Below are positions 12,968 to 54,113 of a stretch of DNA of 64,000 nucleotides, one piece after another; the stretch's first letter is position 1, and the number at the start of each line of letters is the position of its first letter. The DNA is from a virus (taxonomy: Duplodnaviria > Caudoviricetes). The notes beneath the pieces were generated by a model. The model saw nothing but the letters and a program-made list of their open reading frames with translations. It searched no databases and was not told the origin of the DNA. A program made the translations under genes and the position numbers. The stretch spans positions 7,108 through 71,107 of IMG/VR virus record IMGVR_UViG_2930556935_000001, one strand, 5' to 3'.

Positions 12968-13300
12968 ATGGCCCAAAAGATTCAGACCATCTACATCGAC
13001 GACTTCACCGGCAACGAGTCCGACGAGGTCAACACTCACGTCTTCTCGCTGGACGGAGTGAGCTACGAAATTGATCTCATTCCGGAGAATTACGACAAGC
13101 TCTTCGAGGCCCTTGAGCCGTTCATCGACAAGGGCCGGAAGCAGGGGCGGGTAAAGGGAGCACCGAAGGCGCGGAAGAGCGAGGCCGACGGCCCCAGTGC
13201 CGAAGAGGTCCGCGCATGGGCGAGGGTCCAGGGCATAGAGGTCAACGACCGTGGCCGCGTCCCCGCCAACGTTCGCGAGCAGTACGAAGCTGCGCACTGA
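12968..13300 (+). CDS. lsr2: Lsr2 family nucleoid-associated protein
   Basis: MAQKIQTIYIDD...FSLDGVSYEIDL dimerisation domain; VRAWARVQGIEVNDRGRVP AT-hook-like RGR motif. Confidence 0.95.
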   Translation: MAQKIQTIYIDDFTGNESDEVNTHVFSLDGVSYEIDLIPENYDKLFEALEPFIDKGRKQGRVKGAPKARKSEADGPSAEEVRAWARVQGIEVNDRGRVPANVREQYEAAH

Positions 13301-13309
13301 CCCACGCAA

Positions 13310-13338
13310 ACAGCCCCCGGCGCAATGCCGGGGGCTGT
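13310..13338. terminator. intrinsic terminator hairpin after lsr2, possibly bidirectional
   Basis: ACAGCCCCCGGC-gcaat-GCCGGGGGCTGT perfect 12-bp stem. Confidence 0.75.
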
Positions 13339-13389
13339 GCTGTGTGCGGGCCGCCCGAGGTACCCGCGGACCCCGGGCGGCCCGCTCGA

Positions 13390-13884
13390 TCACCCGCGAC
13401 TTGCCGCAGCGATCGTCTCGGCAGCGTCGTCCAATACCTGCTGAACGTCGCGTTCTATCTGCGGGCGGTGTTCGACCATCGTTTCGCGGAACCAGCTGCC
13501 GCCCGTAGTCTGGCGAACCCAGTTGTGCCGATTGCCGAACACGGGGTGACGCCAACCGGTCGAACTGTCCAGGTATCGCGGGAGATTGGCCTCATCCGGC
13601 TTGTCCATGAACGAGACGACTCGGAGTGCTGGAGCCTTCCCGACAGCCGCCTGAATCCTCACGCCTCGCGCCACACGGCGACGGAATCCCGAATGGCCGT
13701 GACCCTGCACGGGGAGGGCGCGCACGCGGTCCTTGGCCTCTTGCACGGCCGGCTTGACTGCCTTCTGGAGATCCTTGCGGAGCTTCTTCGGCAAGTCCCG
13801 GTCGACCTCGCGCAGAGCGATGGCCACCCGCTTGAACTCGTTCCCTAGAGAGACGTTGACCGAAGGCCCGCGGGCGCGCGCCAC
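13390..13884 (-). CDS. HK97 gp10-like neck/tail completion protein
   Basis: Basic protein with WRHPVFGNRHNWVRQ motif; position in tail cluster. Confidence 0.7.
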   Translation of the reverse strand: MARARGPSVNVSLGNEFKRVAIALREVDRDLPKKLRKDLQKAVKPAVQEAKDRVRALPVQGHGHSGFRRRVARGVRIQAAVGKAPALRVVSFMDKPDEANLPRYLDSSTGWRHPVFGNRHNWVRQTTGGSWFRETMVEHRPQIERDVQQVLDDAAETIAAASRG

Positions 13885-14300
13885 TAGACGGTCGCCCGCG
13901 CGATGCCCGTCCTCTGCGCCGGGAACGTCACCTGTGTCTCGGAGAGCGAGCCGACGTCACCGGAGAGGGGCTGGTATTCGAGCAGGATGCACGTCGCTGT
14001 GAACTTCGGGTTCGTCGCCGACACCGCCGAAGCGGTCGGCCGAACCTCCACGACGAACTCAGTCTCGTTGTTGTACAGGGGATACAGGGTCGCGTCGACC
14101 TGCGCCGCGGCGAAGTCCTGCTGAAAGTTGATGACGAAGTTGTCATCCTTCAGCCCCGCAACGCGCTCACGGCCGGAGCCGCTGAAGTTCGTTGTCTCGA
14201 CTTCGTCCTTCGACAGGTTCACTTCGACCGACGAAATGTGATCGGAGAAGTTCACCCCGTTGACGAGTATCGCGCAGTCGCGCAAAACGAGCTTGGCCAT
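13884..14300 (-). CDS. major tail (tube) protein
   Basis: 138 aa, ILVNGVNFSDHISSVEV...ETTNF...RERVAGLKD...NPKFTATC; position. Confidence 0.85.
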   Translation of the reverse strand: MAKLVLRDCAILVNGVNFSDHISSVEVNLSKDEVETTNFSGSGRERVAGLKDDNFVINFQQDFAAAQVDATLYPLYNNETEFVVEVRPTASAVSATNPKFTATCILLEYQPLSGDVGSLSETQVTFPAQRTGIARATV

Positions 14301-14303
14301 CGC

Positions 14304-14576
14304 TTAGCCTTCTTTCTTCTCGGCCACCGATGGCCGCGCGGATTCTGTGGCCGGCTCGACATGTCCGGCCTCGATGAGCGCCTGCTCTTGTGCATCCGTC
14401 AGGCACAAAGTGACCTGCTCGCCCTTGTTCGCTCCGCCGACTTCTCGGGGACCGACGACCACGAATTCGCGGTCGGTCGGCTCTTCCCGGGAACGCAAAG
14501 ACCGCCCGGACGGTGGATCTGCCGGGCGGTCTTGGATGGGAAGCGGATTGGGAGCAGGGCTGTTAGCCCTCGCCAT
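14304..14576 (-). CDS. hypothetical virion-cluster protein
   Basis: Operonic ORF with RBS. Confidence 0.6.
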   Translation of the reverse strand: MARANSPAPNPLPIQDRPADPPSGRSLRSREEPTDREFVVVGPREVGGANKGEQVTLCLTDAQEQALIEAGHVEPATESARPSVAEKKEG

Positions 14577-14580
14577 TACG

Positions 14581-14919: not shown

Positions 14920-14930
14920 CAGTTCCTCGC

Positions 14931-15374: not shown

Positions 15375-15375
15375 G

Positions 15376-15999: not shown

Positions 16000-16001
16000 G
16001 A

Positions 16002-16277: not shown

Positions 16278-16280
16278 GAC

Positions 16281-17023: not shown

Positions 17024-18319
17024 CTAGAGGCCGGTGACCGAACCGAACGCCTTCGGGCGGTAGTGGATCGCCGCGGCGCGCATGTCGGCGCGGATGGCGA
17101 GCTTGCCCTTCACGAAGTAGTCGCTGTGCGAGTTCGACACCTGGACGTCGATACCGCGGCGCATCGCGAGTTCCGAGAAGTTCGCGTAGTCCCCGAGAAT
17201 CGCCTTCGTCGAAGTGACCGCGGTCGTCTCGACAACCGGGATTCCCCAGATGGTGAACGGGCCGACCATCGACGGGTGTCCCCAGATGTACTGACCGTCC
17301 GCCGTCTTCAGCAGCCGGACGTTTTCCCACTTCGCCGGCGCGATGAAGAGAACCGACGGCTCCGCGAACCCGTTGTCACGGATCTTCCGGGCGCACTTGT
17401 ACACGGCGTCCGGGATCGAGTCCGTGCCCAGCGCCTGCGTCTGGATGCCGGAGACGTTCTCGGTGCCGCGCAGGTTCGGGGCGGTGCCGTTGCCGACCAG
17501 CAGCTGCGAGTCGAGACGCTGCTGAATCATGAACGGCAGGCGGTTGTTGACGTAGCCCTGCGCGCGCGGCTCGTCCTCGAACTGCTCGTCAGTGACGGGC
17601 AGGAACGTCGCGATCTTGCGCACCGGCTCCTGACGCTCGGTCAGCGCGAGCGCCGACTCTGCGTAGGAACCCTGGTTGTCCGCCTGGTTCGCCTCCGCCG
17701 TCTCCGCCGCGTTGTTCGTGAACGTGGTCTCTTCCATGTAGACCACGGCGGACATGCCCGTCGTGGTGTGCGGGAAGTACGCGGCGACGTGCACCGAAGG
17801 CCGCGTGGCCATCAGTTCGACACGGCCGGTCCGCAGGTCCTCCGAGTCCCAGCCCACCGGGGTTTCCATCAGCGTCTTCAGGCTGATGTCCAGGTGCGCG
17901 GAGGGGCCCACGCCCGAACCGGGCTTGTAGCCCTTGAAGGCGGTCGACTCGGCGAACTCGGCGCCCAGGTCGACGAACCCGCGCCCGCCCTTGCGCTCCG
18001 GCTCCCGGCCGCTCTTGGAGCCGCGGGTGCCGTCGCCGCCTTCCTTGCCCTCGTCGCCCTGCTGCGCCGCAGCCGCCGCGCGGGCGACGATGAGCAGCTC
18101 GTCGACCTTCGACTTGCAGCCGATGATCTCTTCGTTCATCTTGCGGATCTCGTCGACCTTGGCCGTGGTGTCGCCCGCGATCGACTTGACCTTGCTCATG
18201 TCGTAGTCGGGGCCGGCCTCCGTGAAGACCGCCGCGAGTCCCTTGCGCTTCTCGTCGAGCTTTTCCTGTGCCTGCTTCAGCGCAGGGAATTCGACGATCC
18301 GGTCAGAATCGTTGTACAT
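17024..18319 (-). CDS. major capsid protein (HK97 fold) with N-terminal delta domain
   Basis: VRKIATFLPVTDE, LLVGNGTAPNLRG, LKTADGQYIW, IWGIPVVET, YFVKGKLAIRA. Confidence 0.95.
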   Translation of the reverse strand: MYNDSDRIVEFPALKQAQEKLDEKRKGLAAVFTEAGPDYDMSKVKSIAGDTTAKVDEIRKMNEEIIGCKSKVDELLIVARAAAAAQQGDEGKEGGDGTRGSKSGREPERKGGRGFVDLGAEFAESTAFKGYKPGSGVGPSAHLDISLKTLMETPVGWDSEDLRTGRVELMATRPSVHVAAYFPHTTTGMSAVVYMEETTFTNNAAETAEANQADNQGSYAESALALTERQEPVRKIATFLPVTDEQFEDEPRAQGYVNNRLPFMIQQRLDSQLLVGNGTAPNLRGTENVSGIQTQALGTDSIPDAVYKCARKIRDNGFAEPSVLFIAPAKWENVRLLKTADGQYIWGHPSMVGPFTIWGIPVVETTAVTSTKAILGDYANFSELAMRRGIDVQVSNSHSDYFVKGKLAIRADMRAAAIHYRPKAFGSVTGL

Positions 18320-18382: not shown

Positions 18383-19525
18383 TTAGAAGTCGTTCATGAG
18401 CGCGAGCGACTGAACGAACAGCGAGGCCTTTTCATCGGCGCTCGGCTCGGACGGCTCGGCGTCATCAACGGGAATAGACAGCAGGGTTTCCAGCCGCTTC
18501 ACTTCATCCCTGATCCAAGACAGGAACTCGGCGGAGCCGGCCGACATGCCCTTGCCCTTCTGCGCACGGAGAGCCATGACTTCCGCAGCACGGTCATTCA
18601 GGCTCGACAGATTGGCCAGCACGTCAGTGGCCTCATCCGCGAACCGCTTCCTGCCCTTCTGGTCGCCGTCAGCTGTACGCAGCTGAGGCGGTTCCCGGTC
18701 GGCGTCCGTCAGGTGCGCCGCCAGGTGCTTGTAGACGGCCTCGCGGTCCTTCTCGGGTACGCCCGAGTCGCCGTTCGCGCCGTTCAGTTGAGCGATGCCC
18801 TGAAGGCACGCCCGGATGTTCGCCGGCCCGTCCACGCCGTGGTGATGGGCGAACAGGTACGACGACTTCAGCTCCGGGTCTCCCTCGGGGTCGACCCACG
18901 CGAAGACCGTCCGCAGCTGCGAAGGCCGCGCGTCCGCCGGAAGATCGCCGATCGTCTTGGTTCCGTCCCACGCGCCGGCGAGCGTCGCCGTCTCCCGGGC
19001 CGGGATCGGGCCGCGTACGGCACCGGAGGACTTCGCGGTAGGCCTGTCGTCCATCTGGCGCCCCTTCGTGGCGAGAGTGCGGGTACCGATACCGGCGCCC
19101 CTCAGGACGGGCGAGACCTCATGCACCGTCACCTCTTCGAGGTAGCGAACCGACTGATCCTTCTCTTCACCGAAGGAGTACTTATTGATGTCGAAGCCGT
19201 ACGACCACTCGCCCAAGCCGGCCGCTGCAAGCTCTTTGACGGTCTCGAAGGTGTCCTTGCCGTGAACCGTGTTCATGAAGAACTGGCCATCCAATACGGC
19301 CTTCTTGCCCTTCACGCGGATCACGCCCTTGCCTACGGGCAGCAATCCCTCCCACGACTTGTGGCCGTAGGCGCTGATGACGACGGCCGCCCCATCGGTG
19401 AACGCATCCTCGCGGGTGTAATCCCCGTCGTGATCCCGTACACCCATCGTCGAGAAGACAGCCGAGACAATTCCCTTTTCCGCGTCCTTGATTTCCAGAC
19501 CGCCGGACAGGCTCTTACGCTCCAT
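18383..19525 (-). CDS. HK97 prohead protease with extended C-terminus
   Basis: DHDGD, YGH, EWSYGF, HEVSPVLRGAG motifs. Confidence 0.9.
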   Translation of the reverse strand: MERKSLSGGLEIKDAEKGIVSAVFSTMGVRDHDGDYTREDAFTDGAAVVISAYGHKSWEGLLPVGKGVIRVKGKKAVLDGQFFMNTVHGKDTFETVKELAAAGLGEWSYGFDINKYSFGEEKDQSVRYLEEVTVHEVSPVLRGAGIGTRTLATKGRQMDDRPTAKSSGAVRGPIPARETATLAGAWDGTKTIGDLPADARPSQLRTVFAWVDPEGDPELKSSYLFAHHHGVDGPANIRACLQGIAQLNGANGDSGVPEKDREAVYKHLAAHLTDADREPPQLRTADGDQKGRKRFADEATDVLANLSSLNDRAAEVMALRAQKGKGMSAGSAEFLSWIRDEVKRLETLLSIPVDDAEPSEPSADEKASLFVQSLALMNDF

Positions 19526-20936
19526 TGTTTTCGCCTCCCGGCGCGCCGGTTGCTTCTAGTTGCGGTGGTGCGGGTGGCGCAGCAGTCAAAGCAGGCTGCG
19601 CAGGAAGAGGCGGCTGCATCTGCACGGACACGAGGCCCGTGTGATGACCGACCAGTAGTCCGATGTCCTCGGCCAAGAGCGCCTGTACGGCTGCATCCGG
19701 CTCGAATCCCGCCTTGATCAGGGCGTCAAGGGTGTTCGCCTGAACGCGCAGAATCTCGGCTCGGTCCTTCGAGTCCTCGCGAAGGAATGCAACGTCCCGC
19801 GTGTCGAACCAAAGAGACGCACCAGCAGGGACAGCGACCAGGTTCTGAAGGCTCGCGGCGGCGGTCCTCCACAGGTAGCGGATCGTCCCGTCGGCGAAAC
19901 GGCGGCGCGACGCTGCGAAGTTGTTCGTGTTGAGCGCGGAGCCTTGCAGTCCCTCGGAGAATCCGACCCATGACGGCGGAACTCCGGCCGCTGACGCTAT
20001 GCGCGCCTCGCCCTTGCCGACGGTCGCCGTGAAGTCCATCTGTCGGAAGTCGTGCGTCAGCGGTGTGACGTCGGCGCCGCCCTGAAGGAAGAGCGTCTTG
20101 TAGCTGTTCCACGCGCCTTCATGTCCGGCCTTGAACTGGCGCACGAAGGAGTCGAACTGCTCTTTCTGTACTTCCTTGTCGAAGCGCACCACCATGTTCG
20201 GCACGGCAGCGTGATCGAAGAAGGTTTTCTTGTGAAGGGTCGACGCGGTATCGGCCTCAATCTCCCGCAACACGGGAGTCAGCCACGACATGCCCCGGAA
20301 GCGGGCTGTCGGATCGGGGATCGGTGAATAGTGCGCGACCTCTTCCGGCAGCAACAGAACAGAACCGGCGAGGGGCGTGCCCGTCGCCATGATGCCGAAC
20401 ATCCGCGGCTCGTACAGAAAGCCAATGACCTTCGCATCCGCCGCGTAGTAGTCGCCACTGTGGGAGCCGATAATCATCGATACCCAGTCGGGACGTAGTC
20501 GGGCGAGACGCAGACCCGGACCGCTCGCAGAATTCCCGTAACGGCCCTGGTCGTCTACCTTCGTCCAGAAGCTGTTCCCGGCAAGCGAAGCGTCCTGCTC
20601 CATTCGTGAGAGCAGTTCACCGGTTGTCCCCGAAGGCCACGGGTTTTCCAGCAGCGCGAGTTCTCCCGTGCCGAAGAGATCCCCCGGGCGGCCCTTCGTG
20701 AACTGCCGGAACTGGAAGCGCGCTTCCGAGAAAACCATCTGGCGTGCAACCACGCAGCTGAAGATCGGGCCGTTCCGCTTGAAGGCTCCCTCTACGTAGC
20801 CTTCAAAGTCGGTCTCGATCCGCTCTTTGTCCGCCGTACTGCCCATCGCGAAGGGCGCAGCATCGAGACTCCAAAAGTCCGGCTGCGTAAAACCCTTCTG
20901 CCGCCCCCAGGGGATGAGCTTCTTCCACCACGCCAT
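19515..20936 (-). CDS. portal protein (HK97 family)
   Basis: LAGNSF, LRPDWV, RGMSWL, IASAAGVPPSWVG; between terminase and protease. Confidence 0.95.
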   Translation of the reverse strand: MAWWKKLIPWGRQKGFTQPDFWSLDAAPFAMGSTADKERIETDFEGYVEGAFKRNGPIFSCVVARQMVFSEARFQFRQFTKGRPGDLFGTGELALLENPWPSGTTGELLSRMEQDASLAGNSFWTKVDDQGRYGNSASGPGLRLARLRPDWVSMIIGSHSGDYYAADAKVIGFLYEPRMFGIMATGTPLAGSVLLLPEEVAHYSPIPDPTARFRGMSWLTPVLREIEADTASTLHKKTFFDHAAVPNMVVRFDKEVQKEQFDSFVRQFKAGHEGAWNSYKTLFLQGGADVTPLTHDFRQMDFTATVGKGEARIASAAGVPPSWVGFSEGLQGSALNTNNFAASRRRFADGTIRYLWRTAAASLQNLVAVPAGASLWFDTRDVAFLREDSKDRAEILRVQANTLDALIKAGFEPDAAVQALLAEDIGLLVGHHTGLVSVQMQPPLPAQPALTAAPPAPPQLEATGAPGGENNGA

Positions 20937-20938
20937 CG

Positions 20939-22513
20939 TTACCCCCATGCGCATCCGGCTTCGATGACTGGCTTATTGGCTTTCTGCTGAAGTCCCCACA
21001 TAGCCAACGTGGCAGCCTGAAGCGGTGTGATGTCGACAGCTGCCCCCGGCTGGTCCCACGCCCACAGGCCGGCGGCTACGCGCTTGTCGGCGCCTGCTAC
21101 GGCCGTCGTCAACGGAACCTGATCGAGGTGCACGAGAGTCGGATGGTTGCCCCGGATCGGAACGACCGCGCTCCCAAACGTCCCGCACGCCTGCGCGTAC
21201 TCGCGCACCGTGGGCGAGACGACTTCGAGCCCCTTGTTTTCGAGAGCCGCGATCAGTGCGCCGGCTTGGCTCGCCTTGTTGATGACGATCGCCTTCGGCT
21301 TCCACCGTTCGGCCAGCTCCGCCACGCGAGAGACGATCCATCGGTCACCGGGACGGTGATCGAGGACGTCGGACGACGTGATCTCTACATGCGTCAGACC
21401 GTCCGGGTTCAGCCCGGCGACGACGATGCAACCCATCTTGCGATCCGGCGACAGGTCGATGCCGAACGACAACTCGCCGACAGGTGACGACAGTTCGTCG
21501 ACGCAGGCCTTCCAGTACGACTCACCGATGACGCGCCACGTCTCGCCCTCGACAGGCCAGTCACCGACACCGAGCCGCTCCCGGCTGAACTCTTCCGCCG
21601 ACATCGAGCGGCGCTCCGCCTCGATGTGCTCGACAGAGCGTTCTGGGGACCTGGTCCCACCGATGCGGATCCCAAAGCCGGGGTTCGCCTTCGGGTAGCT
21701 CGCGTACAGGCGCGACAGTTGGCGGTCGTGCTCTGCCTGGTCCCACCGAGGATCGGCCTTGAAGTCCTGCGCGCCGTGGTCCTCGCAGTCCGGCGGGCAG
21801 AACTGGCCGCACGGATCTATGGACCATTCCAGGTAGCACAAGCGAGGGTCGTTGCCTTTGAGCCCGCGGGCCCGCACTCGTCCGAGCGCCGTTGACTCCT
21901 TGTTGCCGGACGATCCCGTGTACCAGACCTGCGGGTCTGGAACAGCGGAAAGGGTCGGCAGGATCGAGCCGACCGCCCGATCGGTGAGGATCATCGCTTC
22001 GTCCAAGACAAGGCGGTCACAGGTGAAGCCACGACCGCCGCCCGCCGTACGCGAGCGGAACCGCAGCCGGCGCAGCGCCCCGTCCCGGAACACCTCGATG
22101 CCCTCTTCGCCATGCGAGCGGGACACCCGCTTCACCATGCGATCCAGGTCCGGGGTGTTCTCGATCAGGCCCAAGATTCGTTTGAACGCTTCGAGGGACG
22201 TGTCGAAGAGGTGCGCGCTGTGAATGCACAGCTCTTCGTCGAAGAGGAACAGGGAGCCCAGCTCGACAGCTTCGAGGACGGCGCCCTTGCCGTTCTGACG
22301 CCCGACGATCAGGCCCACCTCGAAGGCGGACCATGTCCCGTCAGCGCGCTGCCCGAGCGCGTTCTCAAGCACCAGCCGCTGCCAGGGATCGAGAGGAAGC
22401 CCCGCTATCTCCGACAGTTCGGCAACATCTGCCCCCGCGCTCGACACGCGCGGAGGCGCACTGAGTATCCGGGGGGCCTGGTCGCCGCGCCCCGGTACGA
22501 CAACACCGCTCAT
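20939..22513 (-). CDS. terL: terminase large subunit
   Basis: LDPWQ, Walker A VGRQNGKG, Walker B LVLDEA, nuclease GIDLSPDR. Confidence 0.95.
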   Translation of the reverse strand: MSGVVVPGRGDQAPRILSAPPRVSSAGADVAELSEIAGLPLDPWQRLVLENALGQRADGTWSAFEVGLIVGRQNGKGAVLEAVELGSLFLFDEELCIHSAHLFDTSLEAFKRILGLIENTPDLDRMVKRVSRSHGEEGIEVFRDGALRRLRFRSRTAGGGRGFTCDRLVLDEAMILTDRAVGSILPTLSAVPDPQVWYTGSSGNKESTALGRVRARGLKGNDPRLCYLEWSIDPCGQFCPPDCEDHGAQDFKADPRWDQAEHDRQLSRLYASYPKANPGFGIRIGGTRSPERSVEHIEAERRSMSAEEFSRERLGVGDWPVEGETWRVIGESYWKACVDELSSPVGELSFGIDLSPDRKMGCIVVAGLNPDGLTHVEITSSDVLDHRPGDRWIVSRVAELAERWKPKAIVINKASQAGALIAALENKGLEVVSPTVREYAQACGTFGSAVVPIRGNHPTLVHLDQVPLTTAVAGADKRVAAGLWAWDQPGAAVDITPLQAATLAMWGLQQKANKPVIEAGCAWG

Positions 22514-27426: not shown

Positions 27427-28712
<1,286 letters not shown>

Positions 28713-28781: not shown

Positions 28782-28982
28782 TCAATCACCCCCTTTCTGG
28801 CGTATCGGTGGCGGCGCCGGAAGCGGCTTCCCGGGGACGCACGGCTGCATGGCGTCCAGGTCCCAGAGGCGGGCCGTGCGAGTCCCGTAGCGGTGTACGC
28901 GGCCTTCGCGGGCCCACCGGTAGAGGACTTCACGCGGCCGGCCCGTGTACAGACAGGTGGCTTCGGTGTCGGCGAGCCTCAT
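28782..28982 (-). CDS. small HTH DNA-binding protein, possible late regulator
   Basis: LADTEATCLYTGRPREVLYRWAREGRV, MerR/Xis-like HTH. Confidence 0.65.
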   Translation of the reverse strand: MRLADTEATCLYTGRPREVLYRWAREGRVHRYGTRTARLWDLDAMQPCVPGKPLPAPPPIRQKGGD

Positions 28983-29359
28983 GGGCGCCACACCGCGCGG
29001 TAGTCGGGGTGACCGTCGTAGGCCACCACGAACAACCGCAGCGCCTGCTCCATGGCAGCACCGAAGCCGCTCGTGAAAGTCGGCGCGAAGTCGTGAGCAC
29101 GCTCGGCGAGGCGAATCACCTCCCGCTGCGCCTCGATGCGCTTCAGCGTGCGAGCCGGGTCCTGGCGGGCGATGTGCTCTCCGCGCCATGAGAGCGTGCA
29201 CGCGGTGACACGCTCGATCGAGTAATCCACGTCCACCCGACGTGTGCCGGTCTGCTCGTTCTCCTCGAAGGCGGTCCACGTCTCTGGCGCTTCGATCGCT
29301 GCCGCCTCTTCATCGAGCCGCTCCCGGTAGAACGCGATCATGTCGCCGGTGTCGCTCAC
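28979..29359 (-). CDS. DUF6221-like protein
   Basis: MIAFYRERLDEE...HIARQDPARTL...YDGHPDYRAVWRP. Confidence 0.75.
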   Translation of the reverse strand: MSDTGDMIAFYRERLDEEAAAIEAPETWTAFEENEQTGTRRVDVDYSIERVTACTLSWRGEHIARQDPARTLKRIEAQREVIRLAERAHDFAPTFTSGFGAAMEQALRLFVVAYDGHPDYRAVWRP

Positions 29360-29520
29360 AGCCATGGCTCCCAGGTCATCCACGCGAGTCCGGCCAGCAT
29401 CCCGATGCCGCTCACGATCCACACCGTGATCATGAACGCCTGGAAGAGTCCGTAGCCGATGCCGTACCAGCGCCAGTAGTTGATCCATCCGTCCCAGAGA
29501 TCACGCATGATCACCTTCAC
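29356..29520 (-). CDS. small membrane protein
   Basis: Hydrophobic Trp-rich 54 aa, coupled overlaps on both sides. Confidence 0.5.
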   Translation of the reverse strand: MKVIMRDLWDGWINYWRWYGIGYGLFQAFMITVWIVSGIGMLAGLAWMTWEPWL

Positions 29521-37648: not shown

Positions 37649-37921
37649 TCAGGCATCGTTTTCCTCTCCTGTGTAGCGGGCGTACAGCCGCAGCTCGCCG
37701 TCGACGGTGCGGGACAGCGCGTCGAACGAGCCGGGCGGACGGTAGGCGAGGGGGTGCCCCGCCTTGATCCGGGATGCCGCCGTGGCGGCGGCGAACTTCG
37801 ACGGGAAGCCGGTACGGATCACCGCCCATTCGCCGGGCCGTTCCTTCAGCCCCGCGGCGACCGCCCGGTGATCGACCTTCGAGCGGGCGTCGTACCTGCC
37901 GGGCGGGTCTTCGAACTGCAT
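37649..37921 (-). CDS. small DNA-binding-like phage protein
   Basis: AAGLKERPGEWAVI...FDALSRTVDGELRLYARY. Confidence 0.6.
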   Translation of the reverse strand: MQFEDPPGRYDARSKVDHRAVAAGLKERPGEWAVIRTGFPSKFAAATAASRIKAGHPLAYRPPGSFDALSRTVDGELRLYARYTGEENDA

Positions 37922-38334
37922 CACGCTGTCTCCCCGAAGATCAGAGCCAGTTCGGCGTCCATGTCGATGCCGTCCATCTCGTGCGTGAACGGGACTGCCA
38001 GGTACGTGCGGATCAGGAACGCGTCGACCTGCTCGGCTTCTCCGTGCAGCTCTGCGCGGCCGTCGGGGCTGTCCAGCACGATGTGCAGGTCGTCGGGGCC
38101 GCACCGCCAGATGGTGACGTCTCCGCGCAGCTCCGGCGGGCTCTGGCGGGCGAGGCCTTCGGCGAGCAGGCTGCGGCCCATGGTCCATACGACTTCGGAT
38201 CCGTGGGAGTCGTCGCGGACGGTCAGTGTGACGGCGTACGGATCTTTCGGGTTGTAGGCCAACTCGCAGTTGTCGAGCGGCAGGGAGGCCCCGCCTGGAA
38301 GGACGATTTCGAGGTAGATCGGTAGGGTTATCAC
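37921..38334 (-). CDS. ssgA: SsgA-like sporulation/cell-division protein (SALP)
   Basis: L.Y...DPYAV.L...V.WT.GR.LL.EGL...GDV.IW...L.SPDG.A...FL.RTY..VP. Confidence 0.9.
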   Translation of the reverse strand: MITLPIYLEIVLPGGASLPLDNCELAYNPKDPYAVTLTVRDDSHGSEVVWTMGRSLLAEGLARQSPPELRGDVTIWRCGPDDLHIVLDSPDGRAELHGEAEQVDAFLIRTYLAVPFTHEMDGIDMDAELALIFGETA

Positions 38335-44545: not shown

Positions 44546-44797
44546 TCAGCGGGTGCCTTCACGGTGCACTGCGCGGGCGTGGTTGTGGATGCGGCGACCG
44601 ATGCGGAGCCGCTTGCCGGTCGTCTTGCAGCGGCGGCACGGTCTGCCGCGCTTGAGCCGTCCATCGCGGCCGGACTTCATTCGGTGTCCCCAGCCGTCGC
44701 ACCGGCGGCAGCGCCCGAAAGGGCTGACCCAGCAGAGCAGTGGATATCCGGTGAGCAGCGCGAGAACGAGCGCCGTAGTGAGCAGCGCAGAAACCAT
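44546..44797 (-). CDS. membrane-anchored Zn-finger protein typical downstream of AICE traB
   Basis: TM helix then PFGRCRRCDG.G...CRRCKTTGKRLRIGRR. Confidence 0.7.
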   Translation of the reverse strand: MVSALLTTALVLALLTGYPLLCWVSPFGRCRRCDGWGHRMKSGRDGRLKRGRPCRRCKTTGKRLRIGRRIHNHARAVHREGTR

Positions 44798-44841
44798 GAC
44801 TTCCGCCTCCCGGGCGGATTCGGGGGTGTCGCGGGGTGGTG

Positions 44842-44919
44842 GTGCTACGTGCTGCACCGCAGGCCAAGACCGCAGAAGGTGCTAGCGGAGGTGCTACACG
44901 TAGCAGTGGCCCGTGCTAC
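44842..44919. repeat. GTGCTA(C/G)-type short repeats, candidate cis-acting transfer locus
   Basis: GTGCTAC at 44842, 44891, 44913; GTGCTGC 44849; GTGCTAG 44879; inverted variant at 44900. Confidence 0.55.
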
Positions 44920-47012
44920 CCGCTCTGATCGAGAGAGGCACGTTCGATGCCCCGTCGCGTGGTGCGCTTGCCGTCGTCGGTGTAGCCCGCGATGTCCTTC
45001 GTTTCGATGCCGTGCGGCTTCAGGTTCGCGGTGACGGTCTCGCCCTTCCACCCGTCGTAAATGTCGGGGCGCAGCGCGGCGAGGCGTGAAGCGATGCGCT
45101 CGTTCCAGATGCTCTTCTCGTCAGCCGCGACAACGCGGCGGACGTCCGCCACGAGGTCGAATGTCGGCTCGCCGGACTCGGGCATCTGCCCGACGGCGTG
45201 CCCGGTGACGTTGCCGTATTCCTCGCGCACCTTCCGGGCCCGCGCGGTGACCAGGTCCGCCGCGGGGCCGTCGACGAACGCCGACGCCGCGATCACGGGG
45301 TCGTCGCCTTCGCCAGCCATGAAGCAGATGCCACGGTCGGAGCGGCTGAACATCGTCGCCCGGATCCCTGCCTTGTACGCGCCGGTGCCAAGCACCATGT
45401 CGTTCGCAGTGTGGCCCATCACTTTGAGGCAGAAGCGCAGGATCGCGTTCGCGCTGATGCCGGGCGGGAGGCTCTTCGCGTCGGGCCGCTGCGTCGCGAA
45501 CATGCCGACGATGCCGAGGGCCGGTCCGCGCTTGCCGAGGTCGATGCAGATCGATTCGATTTCCGCGCCGTGCTTTTCGTGCTCGAACGCGATCTGGCAT
45601 TCGTCCAGTCCGACGACGATGGGGTGCAACCCGTACCGCTTGTCGCTCGCGAGCTGCGGCGTCACCTTGTTCTCGGGACAGATCGAGCGGGGCAACGCCT
45701 TGATCACCTTCGCGCGGCGCCGCAGCTCTTCCTTCAGCTCCCGCAACGCGTGCAGGACGTACAGGATGTCTTCGTCCTCTTCGCCCGACCGGTAGCGGTG
45801 GCATACCGGTTCCAGCGGACCGAGGTCGCCGGTGCCCTTGAAGTCGAACGCGTAGATCATCGAGCGCGGATCGAGTGCGAAGATCAGCAGAAGCAGCCTG
45901 AGCAGGAACGTCTTGCCCATGCGGGGAACCGACCCGATGACGATCGACGCGAACATCAGGGTGACGTGGACGTCCCGCATCCGCTGGTCGTTGCCGAACA
46001 CGACGGGCTTGAAGAGATCCACCATGCCGGACTTCAGTAGCGGCCACGGCGGCTTCGTCGTCTCGTTCATCGGGCGGTCGCCCACCCACAGGATGAGGCG
46101 CCCCTCGTGCTCCTCGGGGTCCGCCGCAGGCCACACGCAGCCCAGCTTGCGGCGGAGGCCGGAGGCCAGTGAGCTGCGCTCTTCCATGATGTCTTCCGGC
46201 GTGACGCCGTACGGCAAGTCGATGTCGGCGCGGTAGCCGGGGCCATCGCGGCAGATCTCGGACGTGAACTTCATCCCGTCCATGTCGCCGCCCTTCTTGA
46301 TGGCGGCACTGATCTTCGCGTTGCCGATGGCTCCGAGCGCCCTCATCACGATCGAGAACGTCAGCTTCTGCACTTCGGTCTTCAGCACGGCCGGCCCGAT
46401 GACGGGGGCGTCCAGGCGCTGACCTGCGTAACCGAGCCCCATCACACCGACCGCGGCGAACACGTACAGCCATGCGGGCGCCATCACGCACAGCGTGAGC
46501 GCGACCCCGAGACCGAACACCGCCGCAATCACGGTGGCGAAGCCCCGCAGCCGCACCCGTCCGGCCCGCAGCCGGGCCAGGGCCATGTACTCGCTCGCGT
46601 CTTCCTGCCGCACCGCGTAGTCCCGCAGCGGGGCCGCCTCCACGTCCCACAGCCACGCGTTCGCGGCCACCGCGAGGCGGACAGCCCCGGCGGGTGCGCG
46701 AGCGGCGAGGCGGGCCGGGTAGACGCCGCCGACGGTCCGGACGCCGTGGTACAGCGAGGCGTACGCGACGTGAGCGCCGACGTGCCGGGCGGTGGCGAGG
46801 AAGTCGCGCCGGTTGGTCAGCCATCCCGCGACGATCGGACGCCGCTTCTCGGTGACGATGCCGGGCGCGGGCAGGTTCGGGTTGTCGACGGGCACGGGCG
46901 CCGCGTCCGGTTCCAGGCTGTACGTCTCGGTGTCGGGGTCGGCGTCGTCGACCTTCGTCAGCGTCACGGGCCGGCTGTCGAGCGTGCCGCGTGTGCCGTC
47001 GGCGATGCTCAC
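44916..47012 (-). CDS. traB: TraB-like FtsK/SpoIIIE conjugative DNA translocase
   Basis: N-terminal TM pair, Walker A GSVPRMGKT, DFKGTGDL, Walker B IVVGLDECQ, ATQRPD, C-terminal wHTH-like domain. Confidence 0.9.
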   Translation of the reverse strand: MSIADGTRGTLDSRPVTLTKVDDADPDTETYSLEPDAAPVPVDNPNLPAPGIVTEKRRPIVAGWLTNRRDFLATARHVGAHVAYASLYHGVRTVGGVYPARLAARAPAGAVRLAVAANAWLWDVEAAPLRDYAVRQEDASEYMALARLRAGRVRLRGFATVIAAVFGLGVALTLCVMAPAWLYVFAAVGVMGLGYAGQRLDAPVIGPAVLKTEVQKLTFSIVMRALGAIGNAKISAAIKKGGDMDGMKFTSEICRDGPGYRADIDLPYGVTPEDIMEERSSLASGLRRKLGCVWPAADPEEHEGRLILWVGDRPMNETTKPPWPLLKSGMVDLFKPVVFGNDQRMRDVHVTLMFASIVIGSVPRMGKTFLLRLLLLIFALDPRSMIYAFDFKGTGDLGPLEPVCHRYRSGEEDEDILYVLHALRELKEELRRRAKVIKALPRSICPENKVTPQLASDKRYGLHPIVVGLDECQIAFEHEKHGAEIESICIDLGKRGPALGIVGMFATQRPDAKSLPPGISANAILRFCLKVMGHTANDMVLGTGAYKAGIRATMFSRSDRGICFMAGEGDDPVIAASAFVDGPAADLVTARARKVREEYGNVTGHAVGQMPESGEPTFDLVADVRRVVAADEKSIWNERIASRLAALRPDIYDGWKGETVTANLKPHGIETKDIAGYTDDGKRTTRRGIERASLDQSG

Positions 47013-47884
47013 GGCTGGAACGCCGCAACATCAGCAGCGTCGAAGACGTGTGACCCGCCATCGGCGCCCGCCGCAACGGGGGTGAGCCGGCCGCGATGCA
47101 CCCACGACCGGACGGTCTCCGGCTTCACCTTCTTCAGCGCCGCGACTTGAGCGGTCGTCAGCGTCTCGCCACGGTGGGCGGCGGGTGCCGTGGCGCGGCG
47201 CGCGATCGGCAGCAGAACGGCGCCCGCCGGAACGACGTCCGCCATCGGCGAGCTGCGCCGTGCAACGGGAGGCGCGACAACCACCGGCGGGGCCGTGGCG
47301 GCGGACACCAGGGGCAGCAGTACAGCGCCCGCCGGAGCGGTCACCGGCCACAGGACCGCAGCGCCCCCGCCACGCACTGCAACGCGGGGTGTTGCAGTGC
47401 CACGCCATGCCGTTGCAACGCGTCCCCAGGTGAGTGCGGCGAGGTGCGTGCCGAGTCCGATACAGACGACCGGCGCCGCCGACGCGAGGATGACGTGCCC
47501 CCATGTCGGCACATCGCTGGACGCAGTAATTCCAGCGGCTGCCGATCCGTGCGCGACATTCAGCGTGAGCGAAATTGCGGTAAGGCCGATAACCGTTCCG
47601 ATTGCCCACCGATATCCGGCACCGCCGTAAAGGACGATCGATGCGACGGCGGCGAGCCCGGCGAGCAGGTCGACGGCGAGCGGATAGAACTGCCGGACTT
47701 CGTGAAGGCCGATGGTGTCGGCGGTATCGCGGAGCGGCACCCACGAGACGCGCATACCGACGACGGCAACGAGCGCGAGAGCGGTGAGGATCAGGGCGAA
47801 CCCGGCGACGCTCATCGTCAGGTTCACGCTGTCGCGACTCTTGATCACCGCAGGGGGTGGCGGACTAGTCTTCTTCCGGGCCAT
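47009..47884 (-). CDS. DUF2637/Spd-like multi-TM protein with C-terminal HTH
   Basis: SW..LRD.A...YPLAVD...SLTLNVAH, four TMs; LTTAQVAALKKVKPETVRSWVHRGRL HTH; coupled to traB. Confidence 0.8.
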   Translation of the reverse strand: MARKKTSPPPPAVIKSRDSVNLTMSVAGFALILTALALVAVVGMRVSWVPLRDTADTIGLHEVRQFYPLAVDLLAGLAAVASIVLYGGAGYRWAIGTVIGLTAISLTLNVAHGSAAAGITASSDVPTWGHVILASAAPVVCIGLGTHLAALTWGRVATAWRGTATPRVAVRGGGAAVLWPVTAPAGAVLLPLVSAATAPPVVVAPPVARRSSPMADVVPAGAVLLPIARRATAPAAHRGETLTTAQVAALKKVKPETVRSWVHRGRLTPVAAGADGGSHVFDAADVAAFQP

Positions 47885-48933: not shown

Positions 48934-49172
48934 GACCCGCCTCGTTCCGGCCCAAGACCGTGGACGGCGCGGTGCGCGTTGACCAAGCCCTCGCACACGG
49001 CGCAGTTCTGGTACGAGCCGAGCGGCGCCCGCTTCCCTATGCAGATGTGGCCGCAGAGCGCTATGTCCCCCCGCCTCACGCGGCCGGTGAAGCAGATCGG
49101 ACAGACGACGTGCGCGATGGGCGGCGCGCTGAACGACGCGGTAGCCTCCCTCGATTCAGCGACGGTTGTCAC
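48930..49172 (-). CDS. small Zn-finger protein, paralogue of 48455-48691
   Basis: IAHVVCPICF...ALCGH...CAVC; RBS GGAGGG. Confidence 0.6.
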   Translation of the reverse strand: MTTVAESREATASFSAPPIAHVVCPICFTGRVRRGDIALCGHICIGKRAPLGSYQNCAVCEGLVNAHRAVHGLGPERGGS

Positions 49173-50095
49173 AGTCCCTCCTTCCGTTGCTGGTTCCTGT
49201 AGCCGGAGCGCACCGACGATTCCGCCTGCCGGTATCCGCCTTTGCCGTGCGCGGTGACGTACGCCGCGCCCAACTGGTCGATGGCCGTGTCGATGTCGAT
49301 GCCGTCCGAACACGCTGCGCGGGCAGCCCAGAAGAGAGCGTTCGACAGGTTGCCGTCCGGCGCCGTCAGCACCGTGTCGACCAGGCCGGAGATGCCGCCC
49401 GTCTTCCGCGGCTGCGCGAACAGCGGCTTCGGCGGCGGAGCCGGCTCGCGGCACAGTTCGACCAGCCACCGCGGCGCGTCCCGGACCGGCGTCGCGTTCT
49501 CCGCGATGTAGGAACCCTTCGAGGTGATCGAGCCTGCCCCGAGGACGTAGCCGCCACGCTCCCCGCCGTTGCACCGGATGTCGAGCACGCCCTTCACGAG
49601 CGACGCCTGAGACGCCTTCACACCCTCCGGCCACCGGTAGTACAGGTGCAGCCCCATCGACCCGGTGCACACGCGGTACGTGTCGTTCAGCTCTGCCCAG
49701 TCGCCGCCGTGCAGCTCGCACACCGCCTTGAGCACGTCGTGCCCGTCGACCATCGGCCCGAGTGACTCGTGAAGCTGCGCGAACTGCGTGCCCTTCAACT
49801 GACCGGGCAGCTTGGCTATGTCGCAGTCGATGACGAGCAGCCCCGACGGCTTGCACGCAACGCCGATGTTCGCGGCCGGCGACCACGACCAGACCTCGAT
49901 GACCCGGTCAAGGTCGTTCGTCGCCTCTTCGCCCCACCGGATCTTGTACGGCTTGACCGGGGTCAGCAAGTGCGGTTGCTTGTCGATGACGTCACCGGAC
50001 TGCGGGCACCGGGTCCCCGCCTCGTTGCACGGGAAGATATGGAAGCCCTGCTGTACGGCGGTCACCGCGTAGCTGATCAGGTTCATACGGAACAC
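49169..50095 (-). CDS. bifunctional DNA primase/polymerase (Prim-Pol)
   Basis: GFHIFPC, ATND, ANIGVAC, LLVIDCD, TGSMGLHLYY, LDIR..GGYVL, N.LFWAA. Confidence 0.92.
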   Translation of the reverse strand: MFRMNLISYAVTAVQQGFHIFPCNEAGTRCPQSGDVIDKQPHLLTPVKPYKIRWGEEATNDLDRVIEVWSWSPAANIGVACKPSGLLVIDCDIAKLPGQLKGTQFAQLHESLGPMVDGHDVLKAVCELHGGDWAELNDTYRVCTGSMGLHLYYRWPEGVKASQASLVKGVLDIRCNGGERGGYVLGAGSITSKGSYIAENATPVRDAPRWLVELCREPAPPPKPLFAQPRKTGGISGLVDTVLTAPDGNLSNALFWAARAACSDGIDIDTAIDQLGAAYVTAHGKGGYRQAESSVRSGYRNQQRKEGL

Positions 50096-50162
50096 TCCTC
50101 ATCAACGCGAACTCCGGGACAGAGGTGAACGGATGAGGTATCTCTGTCGAGTGACTAGCCTT

Positions 50163-52094: not shown

Positions 52095-52120
52095 GGCGCC
52101 AATCTCGATCAACCCGCTGA

Positions 52121-52148
52121 GGGGGGCCCGCGTCAGGACGGGCCCCCC
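52121..52148. terminator. hairpin between convergent genes
   Basis: GGGGGGCCCG...CGGGCCCCCC. Confidence 0.7.
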
Positions 52149-52152
52149 GGGA

Positions 52153-52494
52153 TCACTCGCCGTTCAGCGCGGCGTGTGCCTCTTCGAACGCGGCGCGTGC
52201 GGCGTCGAGCACCTCGCCCGCCTCTTCGAGAGCCGGCCCGATGTGGGCCCCCTCGCTCTTCACGGCCTCGTACTTCAGGTGGGCCGCTTTGAGCCGCGAC
52301 GCATGGGTGTCGAACGCCTTCTGCGCCTTGTCGAACTTCACCGTGGCGCGCTCGAAGTCACCGGCGACCTTCGCGAAGGTCAGCGGCTTCCGGCCGCGCT
52401 TCTTCGGCTCCGGCTCCGCTTCGGGAGCCGCACCGTCAACGGTGCCGTCCCAGTCCTCATCGTCCTCGTACGGCTCTGCAACAACCTCGCTCAT
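52153..52494 (-). CDS. coiled-coil hypothetical protein
   Basis: Acidic N-terminus, KKRGRKP AT-hook-like motif, helical C-terminus. Confidence 0.6.
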   Translation of the reverse strand: MSEVVAEPYEDDEDWDGTVDGAAPEAEPEPKKRGRKPLTFAKVAGDFERATVKFDKAQKAFDTHASRLKAAHLKYEAVKSEGAHIGPALEEAGEVLDAARAAFEEAHAALNGE

Positions 52495-52574
52495 GCGCGG
52501 GTCTCTCTTCCTGCGTCGGGGCATCAAAAAAGGACGCGCCCGTTCGGGTCGCGTCCGTCTGTGGGGCGGGGCGG

Positions 52575-53438
52575 TTACGGCTGGAACGTCGCCGCGATCA
52601 TGCGTGCTTGACCGTCCGACATGGACTCCACGTTGGGCACGCCCTTCGACTGAAGGAACGCGACCAACTGCGGGTCAAGGGCGGAAGGAGCAGGCTGCGG
52701 GGCAGCCGGGGCCGGGCTCGCAGCCTGGGGTGCACCCTGCGGCGCCGCGCCCCACTGCTGCGCAGAGGGAGAGGCGGGGGGCGTCTGGGCAGGGGCTCCC
52801 GGCGCTGTACCGGCAGGCTGCCCCCACTGCCCCGCCGGAGGGCCCTGCGGCGCCTGAGCGGGCGCCTGCCACTGCCCCGGCGGAGGACCGGCCGGAGCCT
52901 GCTGCGGAGCCGCCTGCGTGCCCTGCCACGGGTCGTACGGCAGCTGCTGCGACGCGTACTGAGGCTGCGCTCCGTACGGGGCCTGAGCGGGCGCCTGTCC
53001 GTACTGCGGCGCCGCCTGCGCCTGCGGCTGCGCGAACTGCTGCCGCGGATGCGTCTGGATGTACATCTGCGCACTCGCCGCGTCCTGGTCGGAGAAGTCC
53101 GTCAGGTGGTAGGCACCCGACTTCTGTCCCTGCGCGGGAGTCTGCGCGAGACGCCCGAGGACCATCGCCCCGAGCTGCGTCTTCAGCTGCGGCACGAGAG
53201 CCTTGCCGCCGATGGTCGTTCCGGCGAGGACCGTCGGCTGCCCGGTCTGCGGGTCCACCAGGTCGATGATGACCACGTCGGCTTCCACCATGTCCACCGG
53301 ACCTTCGTCCGCCTGGAACGTCTTGGTGACGACGCGGTCCGGATAGATCAGGAACAGCCGACCGAGCCAGTCGGCGTGATCCCGCGGCGAGAAGAACCCC
53401 GAGTTCTTCGCCGGCTGATTGAACGGGCTTGTTGTCAC
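52575..53438 (-). CDS. putative single-stranded DNA-binding protein with Gln/Pro/Ala-rich tail
   Basis: Beta-rich N-domain (GRLFLIYP...VEADVVIID...VLGRL), long low-complexity tail; in recombination cluster. Confidence 0.6.
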   Translation of the reverse strand: MTTSPFNQPAKNSGFFSPRDHADWLGRLFLIYPDRVVTKTFQADEGPVDMVEADVVIIDLVDPQTGQPTVLAGTTIGGKALVPQLKTQLGAMVLGRLAQTPAQGQKSGAYHLTDFSDQDAASAQMYIQTHPRQQFAQPQAQAAPQYGQAPAQAPYGAQPQYASQQLPYDPWQGTQAAPQQAPAGPPPGQWQAPAQAPQGPPAGQWGQPAGTAPGAPAQTPPASPSAQQWGAAPQGAPQAASPAPAAPQPAPSALDPQLVAFLQSKGVPNVESMSDGQARMIAATFQP

Positions 53439-53454
53439 TGTGCCTCTTCCTTGA

Positions 53455-53700
53455 TCAGCGCTCGGTGCAGCGCGGGTAACTGGAGTTGCGGTAACAGTCG
53501 TCGTAGTCGCTGAGAGAGACCCTGAACTCGTGCTCGCGGCCCGCCTTGTCGCGGGTCGTGAGCTTGTACGTCCACTGCTTCGTGGCCGACCAGTACGTAC
53601 GGTCCTTGTCCACGACCGTTCCGGCCGGACCCTGTGGCGGGCCGCAGGCGGCGAGGGCGAGCGCAGCAGCGGCCATGACCGCCACGAGTAAGCGCCGCAT
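53455..53700 (-). CDS. small lipoprotein
   Basis: Lipobox LAAC after signal peptide. Confidence 0.7.
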   Translation of the reverse strand: MRRLLVAVMAAAALALAACGPPQGPAGTVVDKDRTYWSATKQWTYKLTTRDKAGREHEFRVSLSDYDDCYRNSSYPRCTER

Positions 53701-53924
53701 CGTGTGTGCTCCTCTACTTGCAGGGATGCGAGGGGTAGTGGCCGAACACCACGACCGCGATGACGGCCGCAGTGATGGCGGCCATCGTCAGAAGCCGCCG
53801 CGTCACGGCATCTCCGATCGTTTGGCGCCGCAGCCGCTGCACGTCCAGCGCAGCGGGCCGCGAGTCATCTCCGTCCAGCGGTGAAGGGCCGGGAACGCGC
53901 CGTGCAGCAGGGCGAGCAGCAGCA

Positions 53925-54113
53925 TCACGCGATCCGCTCCGACCGGGAGTCTTCGAGCAGCGCGCGCACTTCGTCTTCCACGTAGCGGCGCATACCGCCC
54001 ACCGTCCGGACGGTGGTCAGCTTCCCGGCCTTCGCCCACCGGGTCACGGTGCGCGGGTCGACGCGGAACAGCGTCGCCACCTCAGCCGGCGTCAGAAGGG
54101 ATTCGGTTTCCAT
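53925..54113 (-). CDS. bldC: BldC-family MerR-like HTH regulator
   Basis: LLTPAEVATLFRVDPRTVTRWAKAGKLTTVRTVGGMRRY..EVRALL closely matches Streptomyces BldC as I recall it; RBS AAGGAGG. Confidence 0.85.
   Translation of the reverse strand: METESLLTPAEVATLFRVDPRTVTRWAKAGKLTTVRTVGGMRRYVEDEVRALLEDSRSERIA

Follow-up and report, generated by a model that had tools for sequence, protein, structure and literature searches.

The 64,000-nucleotide stretch analyzed here, referred to below as the window, comprises bases 7108-71107 of a 71,107-bp IMG/VR provirus record (IMGVR_UViG_2930556935_000001; CheckV completeness 100%), and covers most of a siphovirus-type Streptomyces prophage of ~71 kb. Four of its genes encode proteins of host-regulator type: a BldC-family winged helix-turn-helix (HTH) protein, an SsgA-like protein (SALP), a peptidoglycan hydrolase with an Rpf domain, and an Lsr2-like nucleoid-associated protein. 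A preliminary description of this DNA had located these four genes and had proposed that, together with a TraB-like translocase, they form a set with which the phage steers host development. We found all four where it had placed them, with family-level statistics far beyond chance (Table 1). On balance, we favor reading them as four separately acting accessory genes that are fixed in one phage lineage and lie in four transcription contexts.

The BldC-family gene is indeed present at 53925, but 54113, given earlier as its other end, is the ATG of codon 9, and the open reading frame (ORF) ends at 54137. Its product scored 92.7 bits against the NCBIfam model NF033787 (cut-off 77; E = 8.6e-27) and also matched Pfam HTH_17 and MerR, and the prophage copies of three relatives (G001, G002, and G005) scored 89-95 bits against the same NCBIfam model. 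The protein consists of the winged HTH alone, in 70 residues (62 from Met9), with matches limited to HTH families. It is 63-66% identical to host BldC, which is near-invariant over five Streptomyces genomes and is reportedly the subject of work by Bush from 2019, while the BldC copies of isolated actinomycete phages reach at most 49% identity. Because its start overlaps by 4 nucleotides (nt) the stop of the upstream gene, whose product carries a Cas4-like exonuclease domain, we place BldC in the early operon. Comparison with the residue contacts described for host BldC (Schumacher 2018, PMC5859096) showed that the head-to-tail interface is kept (L11, E16, F21, R22, V23, T42, and G44), as are the phosphate and kink contacts (T27, T29, W31, and K33), the major-groove R30, and the wing residues R47 and R48, with conservative changes at K26R, I40V, and L43V. 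The window protein is therefore like host BldC in size (~68-70 residues), winged-HTH-only build, family score, and interface and major-groove residues, and differs from it in having Met at the His46 position and in being encoded in a phage early operon.

SALPs have no known function beyond the control of division and of the cell wall. The SALP of the window matched PF04686 at E = 9.8e-21 (74 bits; cut-off 25), and the SsgB structures 6slc and 3cm1 were both recovered (E = 1e-29, ~130 residues) with a profile built from the prophage SALPs. In a tree with host paralogues of five groups, taken from two genomes, nine prophage SALPs and two database proteins formed one clade (support 99/97), separate from all five groups. 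Against the NCBIfam model for SsgD the protein scored 66 bits (cut-off 185), and it is not orthologous to a named host paralogue (SsgA-G). Host paralogues from five genomes were 32-40% identical to it; the top host match in each genome, at 40%, is a copy that is identical in G009 and G010 and that we take to be SsgB. Nine SsgB residues have been addressed by mutagenesis (Y35, V37, R55, L57, L96, L97, V115, G118, and E120; PMC8061694), and seven of them are kept in the window SALP (Y35, V37, R55, L57, L97, V115, and E120, which includes the R55-E120 pair). The SsgA-family gene of Streptomyces phage Dagobah (Hardy et al. 2020, PMC7650747) is also phage-borne, lies in the early region, and adjoins a primase-polymerase gene; its product is 33.9% identical to the window SALP and forms a long branch outside the prophage clade, which means at least two independent acquisitions of SALPs by phages. 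That paper names ssgA in Dagobah, and Lsr2-like proteins only in Coruscant, Endor1, and Endor2 (PMC7650747).

The hydrolase combines three domains: Rpf (PF06737; E = 7.2e-35, 119.9 bits, residues 70-145), NlpC/P60 (PF00877; E = 1.1e-19, residues 190-289), and LysM (residues 343-389). Its full ORF spans 27427-28602 on the minus strand, with a probable start at Met27 (28524) or Met32 (28509), and the database protein has 360 residues. By eye and by hydropathy, the N-terminus shows a basic stretch, a single hydrophobic segment (~48-67 of the long ORF), and then AVADA/AS. Across 19 homologues, C81/E82/S83, C145, D204/C205/S206, and H250 were invariant and E262 was at least 90% conserved, so that the Cys-Glu-Ser of the Rpf domain, whose Glu is catalytic, and the NlpC/P60 Cys and His are among the invariant positions. 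The protein fell below the NCBIfam equivalog cut-offs for Rpf (NF046106, 132 versus 180 bits; RpfC, 96 versus 200 bits). The start is immediately preceded by a terminator-like hairpin, which implies that the gene is a transcription unit of its own. Genes for DUF6221, HNH, and terminase proteins adjoin the hydrolase gene in the linear phage-plasmid pS1D4-14.2 (NZ_CP041606.1) as they do here. The three-domain architecture was present in 119 of the best 120 database matches and in ~50 IMG/VR records; among isolated phages, none of 585 matching records covered 80% or more of the hydrolase, and the Rpf and NlpC/P60 domains there are adjacent separate genes or parts of tail proteins. Host Rpf and the mycobacterial RpfB-RipA pair, whose members act in synergy, offer the same Rpf-type lytic transglycosylase and NlpC/P60 endopeptidase domains, but the window phage fuses both, with LysM, into one predicted exported protein.

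Other wall-active proteins and related elements were seen beside this enzyme. An NlpC/P60-like stretch of the tape measure resembles the separate hydrolase, and PHROG transglycosylase and endolysin-type families matched the tape-measure C-terminus; at the left end of the record we noted by eye a canonical amidase-LysM lysin with a small hydrophobic, holin-like neighbor. With the hydrolase, these give the phage at least three wall-active proteins. The same hydrolase is also found, with portal, capsid, terminase, and ParB, in linear elements of ~90-99 kb (NZ_CP041606.1; IMG/VR records of 88-99 kb), one of which is filed as a plasmid; the group looks like Streptomyces linear phage-plasmids.

The Lsr2-like protein has both the dimerization domain (PF11774; E = 1.5e-21, 76 bits) and the DNA-binding domain (PF23359; E = 5.1e-15, 55 bits), matched phrog_1223 at E = 5e-30, and carries in its C-terminal domain the RGR stretch that serves Lsr2 as a minor-groove hook. 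It shares 50-56% identity with host paralogues of one class, 45% with those of another, and 61-72% with the prophage copies of G006, G009, and G010. Its gene lies antisense inside the tail operon, between the chaperone and tape-measure genes and the upstream tail genes, in a spot that is conserved in relatives, and this orientation makes it moron-like. An inverted repeat 10 nt past its stop, between the convergent Lsr2 and tail genes, is a candidate bidirectional terminator. Lsr2-like proteins of phages and prophages have been surveyed (Sharma 2021, PMC8612146), and their role in silencing or in countering host Lsr2 has been discussed (PMC7650747; Kronheim et al. 2023, PMC10276819). CgpS of Corynebacterium and other phage Lsr2 proteins share with ours the two-domain build and the location on an actinobacterial phage or prophage; the window gene differs from other phage lsr2 genes in being antisense within the tail operon.

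Table 1. Features of the window, with the four genes of host-regulator type first.
Feature	Position	Strand	Match or note
BldC-family winged-HTH protein, 70 residues	53925-54137	-	NF033787 HTH_BldC
SsgA-like protein, 137 residues, last gene of minus-strand operon	37921-38334	-	PF04686
Predicted exported peptidoglycan hydrolase, Rpf + NlpC/P60 + LysM	27427-28524	-	Pfam
Lsr2-like nucleoid-associated protein, 110 residues	12968-13300	+	PF11774, PF23359, phrog_1223
Tape measure, 1417 residues, C-terminal lytic region	7922-12175	-	PHROG tape-measure and transglycosylase families
Perfect 12-bp inverted repeat, 5-nt loop, 10 nt past Lsr2 stop	13310-13338	.	
Major capsid protein	17024-18319	-	PHROGs
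Protease	18383-19525	-	PHROGs
Portal	19515-20954	-	PHROGs
Large terminase (TerL)	20939-22513	-	PHROGs
Terminator-like GC hairpin and T-run, just upstream of hydrolase start	28594-28613	-	
DUF6221 protein, hydrolase neighbor	28979-29488	-	Pfam
~19 TGAGCC-type repeats around AT-rich core, beside AAA_25 helicase gene	31128-31497	.	
AAA_25 helicase gene	31460-32800		
Protein with sigma-70 region-4 domain only, 196 residues	32869-33459	-	
Small ORF directly downstream of traB	44546-44857	-	59% to 83-residue ORF after FtsK of NZ_CP107792.1
TraB-like FtsK/SpoIIIE-type translocase, 698 residues	44916-47012	-	phrog_1358, E 1.7e-23
Protein with C-terminal HTH_17/BldC-like domain, 291 residues	47009-47884	-	Pfam HTH_17; NF033787 27.7 bits, below cut-off
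Primase-polymerase	49169-50095	-	PF09250
Pentapeptide-repeat protein, 653 residues	50133-52094	+	
Protein with C-terminal Cas4-like exonuclease domain, upstream of BldC, 646 residues	54134-56074	-	phrog_1674, E 2.7e-45
tRNA-Asn (GTT)	60099-60173	-	

The element that carries these genes has complete head, tail, and packaging modules of a tailed phage. Besides the structural genes of Table 1, we identified a head-tail adaptor and a tail terminator with PHROGs, and Pfam and PHROGs together recovered a C5 cytosine methylase, an AAA_25 helicase-like protein, a Cas4-like exonuclease, a sigma-70 region-4 protein, and a primase-polymerase. Almost all genes of the window are on the minus strand, and the guanine-cytosine (GC) content is ~0.66-0.68 in the prophage (0.66 in the window) versus 0.73 in the host flank. 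Megablast with 20 kb of the window returned no close DNA relative among 50,697 phage and 72,556 plasmid records, and the best TerL match among isolated phages, to Rhodococcus phages, was 47% identical. Close relatives are six IMG/VR records (TerL 70-94%) and prophages in the genomes of five Streptomyces species (TerL 79-92%); because these relatives reside in Streptomyces genomes, we assign the host to that genus. We compared ten related stretches (G001-G010), of which G003 and G007 agree in all values and are apparently one prophage, which leaves nine distinct. A serine recombinase of 510 residues (PF00239 Resolvase domain) lies in the left arm of G009, with look-alike ORFs of 507-516 residues in G006 and G010; in the present case the integrase is outside the record, which is cut short of that point. 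The prophage is temperate and comes from an uncultured lineage.

Within this lineage the genes of interest are widely kept. With the window proteins as tblastn queries, the hydrolase was found in 10/10 related records, SALP and Lsr2 in 9/10 each, and BldC and TraB in 6/10 each (TraB was missing from G010, for example), and gene order relative to TerL was constant across relatives. Hidden Markov model checks on G001-G005 agreed with these searches (SsgA in four, BldC above cut-off in three, Lsr2 in four, and Rpf in all five). When the five Streptomyces genomes were searched with the phage SALP, the top match was the prophage copy every time, 17-19 kb from TerL, and four of these genomes contained a second BldC copy above cut-off. 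The sequence of G003/G007 stops at a contig edge shortly beyond SALP, and the same genome carries, on a separate contig, a BldC-family gene near-identical to the G001 and G005 copies. For the closest pair, G001/G005, the ratio of nonsynonymous to synonymous substitution rates (dN/dS) was 0.26 for BldC, 0.25 for SALP, 0.36 for the hydrolase, and 0.22 for Lsr2, against comparison values of 0.08 for TerL and 0.06 for the capsid. The four genes are thus under purifying selection and are clearly not decaying, and SALP, with deeper pairs included, is the one that changes fastest. Since they are kept, syntenic, and under purifying selection, we conclude that they matter to the phage.

Outside the lineage, the picture was different. 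Among 50,697 isolated-phage records we found SALP in 1 (Dagobah), BldC-like proteins in 181, Rpf domains in 585, and Lsr2 in 387, while TraB-like proteins were found in none of them and in 34 plasmid records; actinophages or plasmids thus do carry each of these genes on its own, as claimed earlier. None of the 181 BldC-like isolated-phage records belonged to a Streptomyces phage. A BldC pattern scan returned 27 IMG/VR loci, some of them in complete genomes that have terminal repeats; among the 26 BldC-bearing records besides G002 (13 of them at least 90% complete), none had SsgA, two had Lsr2, and one had an Rpf domain. A hydrolase profile scan kept 80 loci, from which we selected near-full-length matches on contigs of at least 30 kb and excluded five members of the lineage. 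Of the 36 other hydrolase-bearing records that resulted, the 35 searched (17 of them at least 90% complete) contained no SsgA, no Lsr2, no TraB-like protein, and no BldC above cut-off, with one BldC copy at 72 bits, slightly under it. SALP was likewise absent from all seven other TraB-bearing IMG/VR records. A pattern scan of IMG/VR for SALP by itself gave no match, and the distribution of SALP there was assessed indirectly, via records found with other genes. BldC, SALP, Rpf, Lsr2, and TraB thus do not co-occur outside this one lineage, and the combination is one inherited lineage trait, a single evolutionary instance rather than a recurring module. Because the five genes travel together in this lineage alone, their joint presence is by itself no argument for a functional link. 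The preliminary description was right in its identifications, but the cooperating toolkit it drew from them is unsupported by the co-occurrence survey, a check that it had itself proposed.

TraB, the fifth of these genes, showed GKT and VVGLDE motifs by eye and has hydrophobic segments at ~153-200; it matched no Pfam family at E 1e-3 and no PDB sequence. It is 25-54% identical to plasmid proteins annotated as FtsK/SpoIIIE, and it is most closely related to FtsK-type proteins encoded by small plasmids of actinomycetes and by elements that resemble AICEs (integrative and conjugative elements of actinomycetes). The best match (53.6% over 93% of the length) is the FtsK of an 18-kb Streptomyces plasmid that also encodes PrimPol, an HTH gene, and an integrase, and that has the small ORF after traB in common with the window. 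The upstream HTH gene overlaps the traB start by 4 nt, and its homologues adjoin traB in G001, G002, and G005; with the downstream small ORF, the three genes (44546-47884) resemble a plasmid/AICE-type cassette. The same slot holds two TraB types in different relatives, with a mutual identity of only 32-34%. TraB proteins 68-75% identical to that of the window were found in seven further IMG/VR records of 25-46 kb, four of them with a large terminase and one of them a complete 38-kb genome with terminal repeats. Compared with the TraB of actinomycete conjugative plasmids and AICEs, the window protein likewise looks like an FtsK-type ATPase with N-terminal hydrophobic segments, and differs in being located inside a complete phage genome. 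The cognate clt locus of TraB consists of 8-bp repeats, and no clt-type repeat array could be assigned to TraB, the one strong array of the window (31128-31497) being that beside the AAA_25 helicase gene. The plasmid-type TraB may be the most novel part of the element, present in at least two groups of uncultured phages and absent from isolated ones.

Several observations weigh against reading the four genes as lineage-fixed factors of host-regulator type. With respect to fixation, the G004 fragment, which is more distant (TerL 70%) and 77% complete, holds the hydrolase alone of the four, and G008 lacks BldC in its prophage, with no second BldC anywhere in that genome. The dN/dS of SALP rose to 0.48-0.78 in deeper pairs, with the other three genes at 0.15-0.38, all values being Nei-Gojobori (NG86) estimates that are rough at such codon bias and divergence; the raised SALP values fit either an arms race or relaxed constraint. 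The window SALP also has E at the position equivalent to SsgB L96 and T at that of G118. In host BldC, His46 occupies the narrowed, AT-rich minor groove, and the H46E substitution abolishes DNA binding in vitro (PMC5859096). At this position the window protein and that of G009 have Met, G002 has Val, and G010 has Thr, whereas His is retained by host BldC, by four relatives, and by 25 of the 26 viral BldC copies from other records; the window protein may thus be unable to read BldC sites. Finally, the hydrolase architecture is common in many Streptomyces phages and prophages that lack the other three genes, which argues for a general phage wall function over a developmental one.

If the four genes do act separately, as we favor, each could be given a mechanism of its own. 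Lsr2, as an antisense moron with its own hairpin, would probably be made in the lysogen and bind the relatively AT-rich prophage DNA, where it might act as a silencer or join the filaments of host Lsr2. BldC, with its translational coupling to an early exonuclease gene, would probably be an early protein that coats direct repeats as host BldC does, with changed targets that might be promoters of the phage, of host developmental genes, or of both. SALP would probably be made early and target the machinery of septation (SsgB/FtsZ) in infected hyphae. The hydrolase, separately transcribed, would be exported as a muralytic enzyme with two activities, glycan and peptide cleavage, and would attack the wall from outside. 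What the sequences themselves show is the identity, conservation, synteny, selection, and residue states of the genes; expression timing, targets, and any effects on germination, septation, or sporulation timing are what we infer.

We also weighed other readings, which overlap with ours and with each other, so that our confidence in one does not exclude another. The first is that the genes serve phage housekeeping only and that host development is no target, which we consider possible but doubtful. BldC would then be an early or architectural regulator, like Gp36 of mycobacteriophage D29, or a directionality factor, Lsr2 a self-silencer like CgpS, the hydrolase a Sec-exported second lysin, and SALP a fast-drifting moron of minor effect. 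Gp36 and phage Xis are described as small MerR-like or Xis-like proteins with cooperative binding to direct repeats and a regulatory role on phage genes (PMC12266134), and the fold and this cooperative binding are common to BldC, Xis, and Gp36 (PMC12266134; PMC5859096); Gp36 was likened to BldC by modeled structure (PMC12266134), whereas the window protein is a BldC family member by sequence. Also in line with a phage-internal role are the 27 IMG/VR loci with BldC-like genes, the abundance of phage Lsr2 (387 records) and its discussion as a factor in lysogeny or against host Lsr2 (PMC7650747; PMC10276819), and the position of the hydrolase just upstream of the packaging genes, both here and in pS1D4-14.2, with a second lytic domain in the tape measure. 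A second lysin sits less easily with the amidase-LysM lysin and holin-like neighbor already noted at the left end, and a directionality factor with the serine recombinase that serves relatives as integrase. For the same reason, and because the BldC gene belongs to the early operon, well away from the end with the integrase, we regard an excisionase as the less likely role for this protein. SALP is present in every near-complete relative, with a dN/dS of 0.25 in the closest pair, which speaks against a drifting moron. The phage-internal reading thus suits three genes well, as early regulator, prophage silencer, and exported lysin, but not SALP, and as an account of all four we give it limited credence.

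A coordinated developmental toolkit, as proposed in the preliminary description, appears unlikely to us. Here, BldC, SALP, Rpf, Lsr2, and TraB would together keep the mycelium phage-permissive and aid spread: BldC would delay sporulation, SALP redirect septation, secreted Rpf wake spores, Lsr2 silence specialized-metabolite (chemical defense) clusters, and TraB move the genome between compartments. All five genes are real and are kept together in the lineage, and the window BldC is closer to host BldC than is any copy in an isolated actinomycete phage. The biology is also inviting. Streptomyces development is reported to limit phage infection, with mature mycelium less susceptible, and parB, ftsK, and ssgA are named as candidate manipulators in actinophages (Luthe et al. 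2023, PMC10117723); host Rpfs speed germination (PMC5693915), and the level of ssgA governs septation and fragmentation (PMC2440963). Hardy et al. (2020, PMC7650747), who noted ssgA in Dagobah and, in further Streptomyces phages, whiB and Lsr2, suggested that phages manipulate development. However, the combination has a single evolutionary origin, its members are scattered over 41 kb in separate transcription units, BldC has lost His46, and TraB is missing from G010 and BldC from G008. The toolkit is thus attractive given the biology, but what speaks for it is co-residence in one lineage, and our confidence in it is correspondingly low. More speculative still, and in our view improbable, is an element that combines virion spread with plasmid-style spread, in which the AICE-type TraB would pump the replicating genome over cross-walls into adjacent compartments after induction, BldC and SALP would keep the mycelium vegetative and weakly septated, and walls would be opened, and spores nearby woken into a susceptible state, by the exported Rpf/NlpC-P60 enzyme; if true, this would be a phage that manages the life cycle of its multicellular host with a borrowed conjugation motor.

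That the four genes are host DNA miscalled as provirus, or recent decaying passengers, is scarcely credible: IMG/VR provirus borders are predictions, and the left 7 kb contains host-like XRE (with DUF5753) and GntR regulators, but all four genes lie between phage modules (the hydrolase between replication and packaging, SALP and BldC in the early region), are syntenic in prophages of five Streptomyces species, form SALP and Lsr2 clades apart from host copies, and have dN/dS values below 0.4 in the closest pair.

Actinophages with developmental regulators (SsgA, WhiB, Lsr2, and FtsK) have already been published. Newer are a near-host BldC in which His46 is replaced, a phage-specific SALP clade, and a plasmid/AICE-type TraB; in the literature we found neither this combination nor a report of a BldC-family gene from a Streptomyces phage or prophage, of a clade of prophage SALPs, or of a prophage-borne TraB, although supplements may list such genes. 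The means by which phages deal with the multicellular life cycle of Streptomyces, or turn it to their advantage, are under active study, and nine natural variants, some of them in named Streptomyces strains, make clean genetic tests feasible. Should any of the genes alter septation, sporulation timing, or germination, it would provide a defined viral handle on bacterial development; should none do so, a widely repeated inference from such homologues would need toning down.

The remaining features of the record concern replication, regulation, and accessory genes. The TGAGCC-type repeat array is probably the replication origin. Such arrays were present in the window, G006, and G009 only, that is, in the sharers of the AAA_25 helicase, and other relatives have different repeat words at that place; we had considered the array as a clt site for TraB and rejected this, as it tracks the helicase module and not the TraB type. 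In the left arm (record bases 1-7107), we noted a DUF6879 protein, an XRE regulator with DUF5753, which is of a type found beside BldB/WhiJ paralogues, and a GntR/UTRA regulator, and parts of this arm recur in G002, G003, and G005; G002 also has an ORF that resembles DUF397/BldB-like proteins by eye. The lineage may thus carry more development-type regulators. No WhiB-like gene was found in the record. A tRNA-Asn gene lies inside the prophage, and no attachment-site-like repeat of at least 14 nt from its surroundings recurs elsewhere in the record. PADLOC returned methyltransferase models only, for the C5-methylase, and none for nine other accessory proteins; the pentapeptide-repeat protein had no match. 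The gene for this protein lies in the lowest-GC stretch (0.59) of the window, was found in this prophage alone among the relatives, and is likely a recent moron. Scans for sigma-70 promoters found none, such scans being uninformative in Streptomyces. The protein whose only domain is sigma-70 region 4 may be a phage transcription factor; most relatives have a counterpart, with 34-65% identity.

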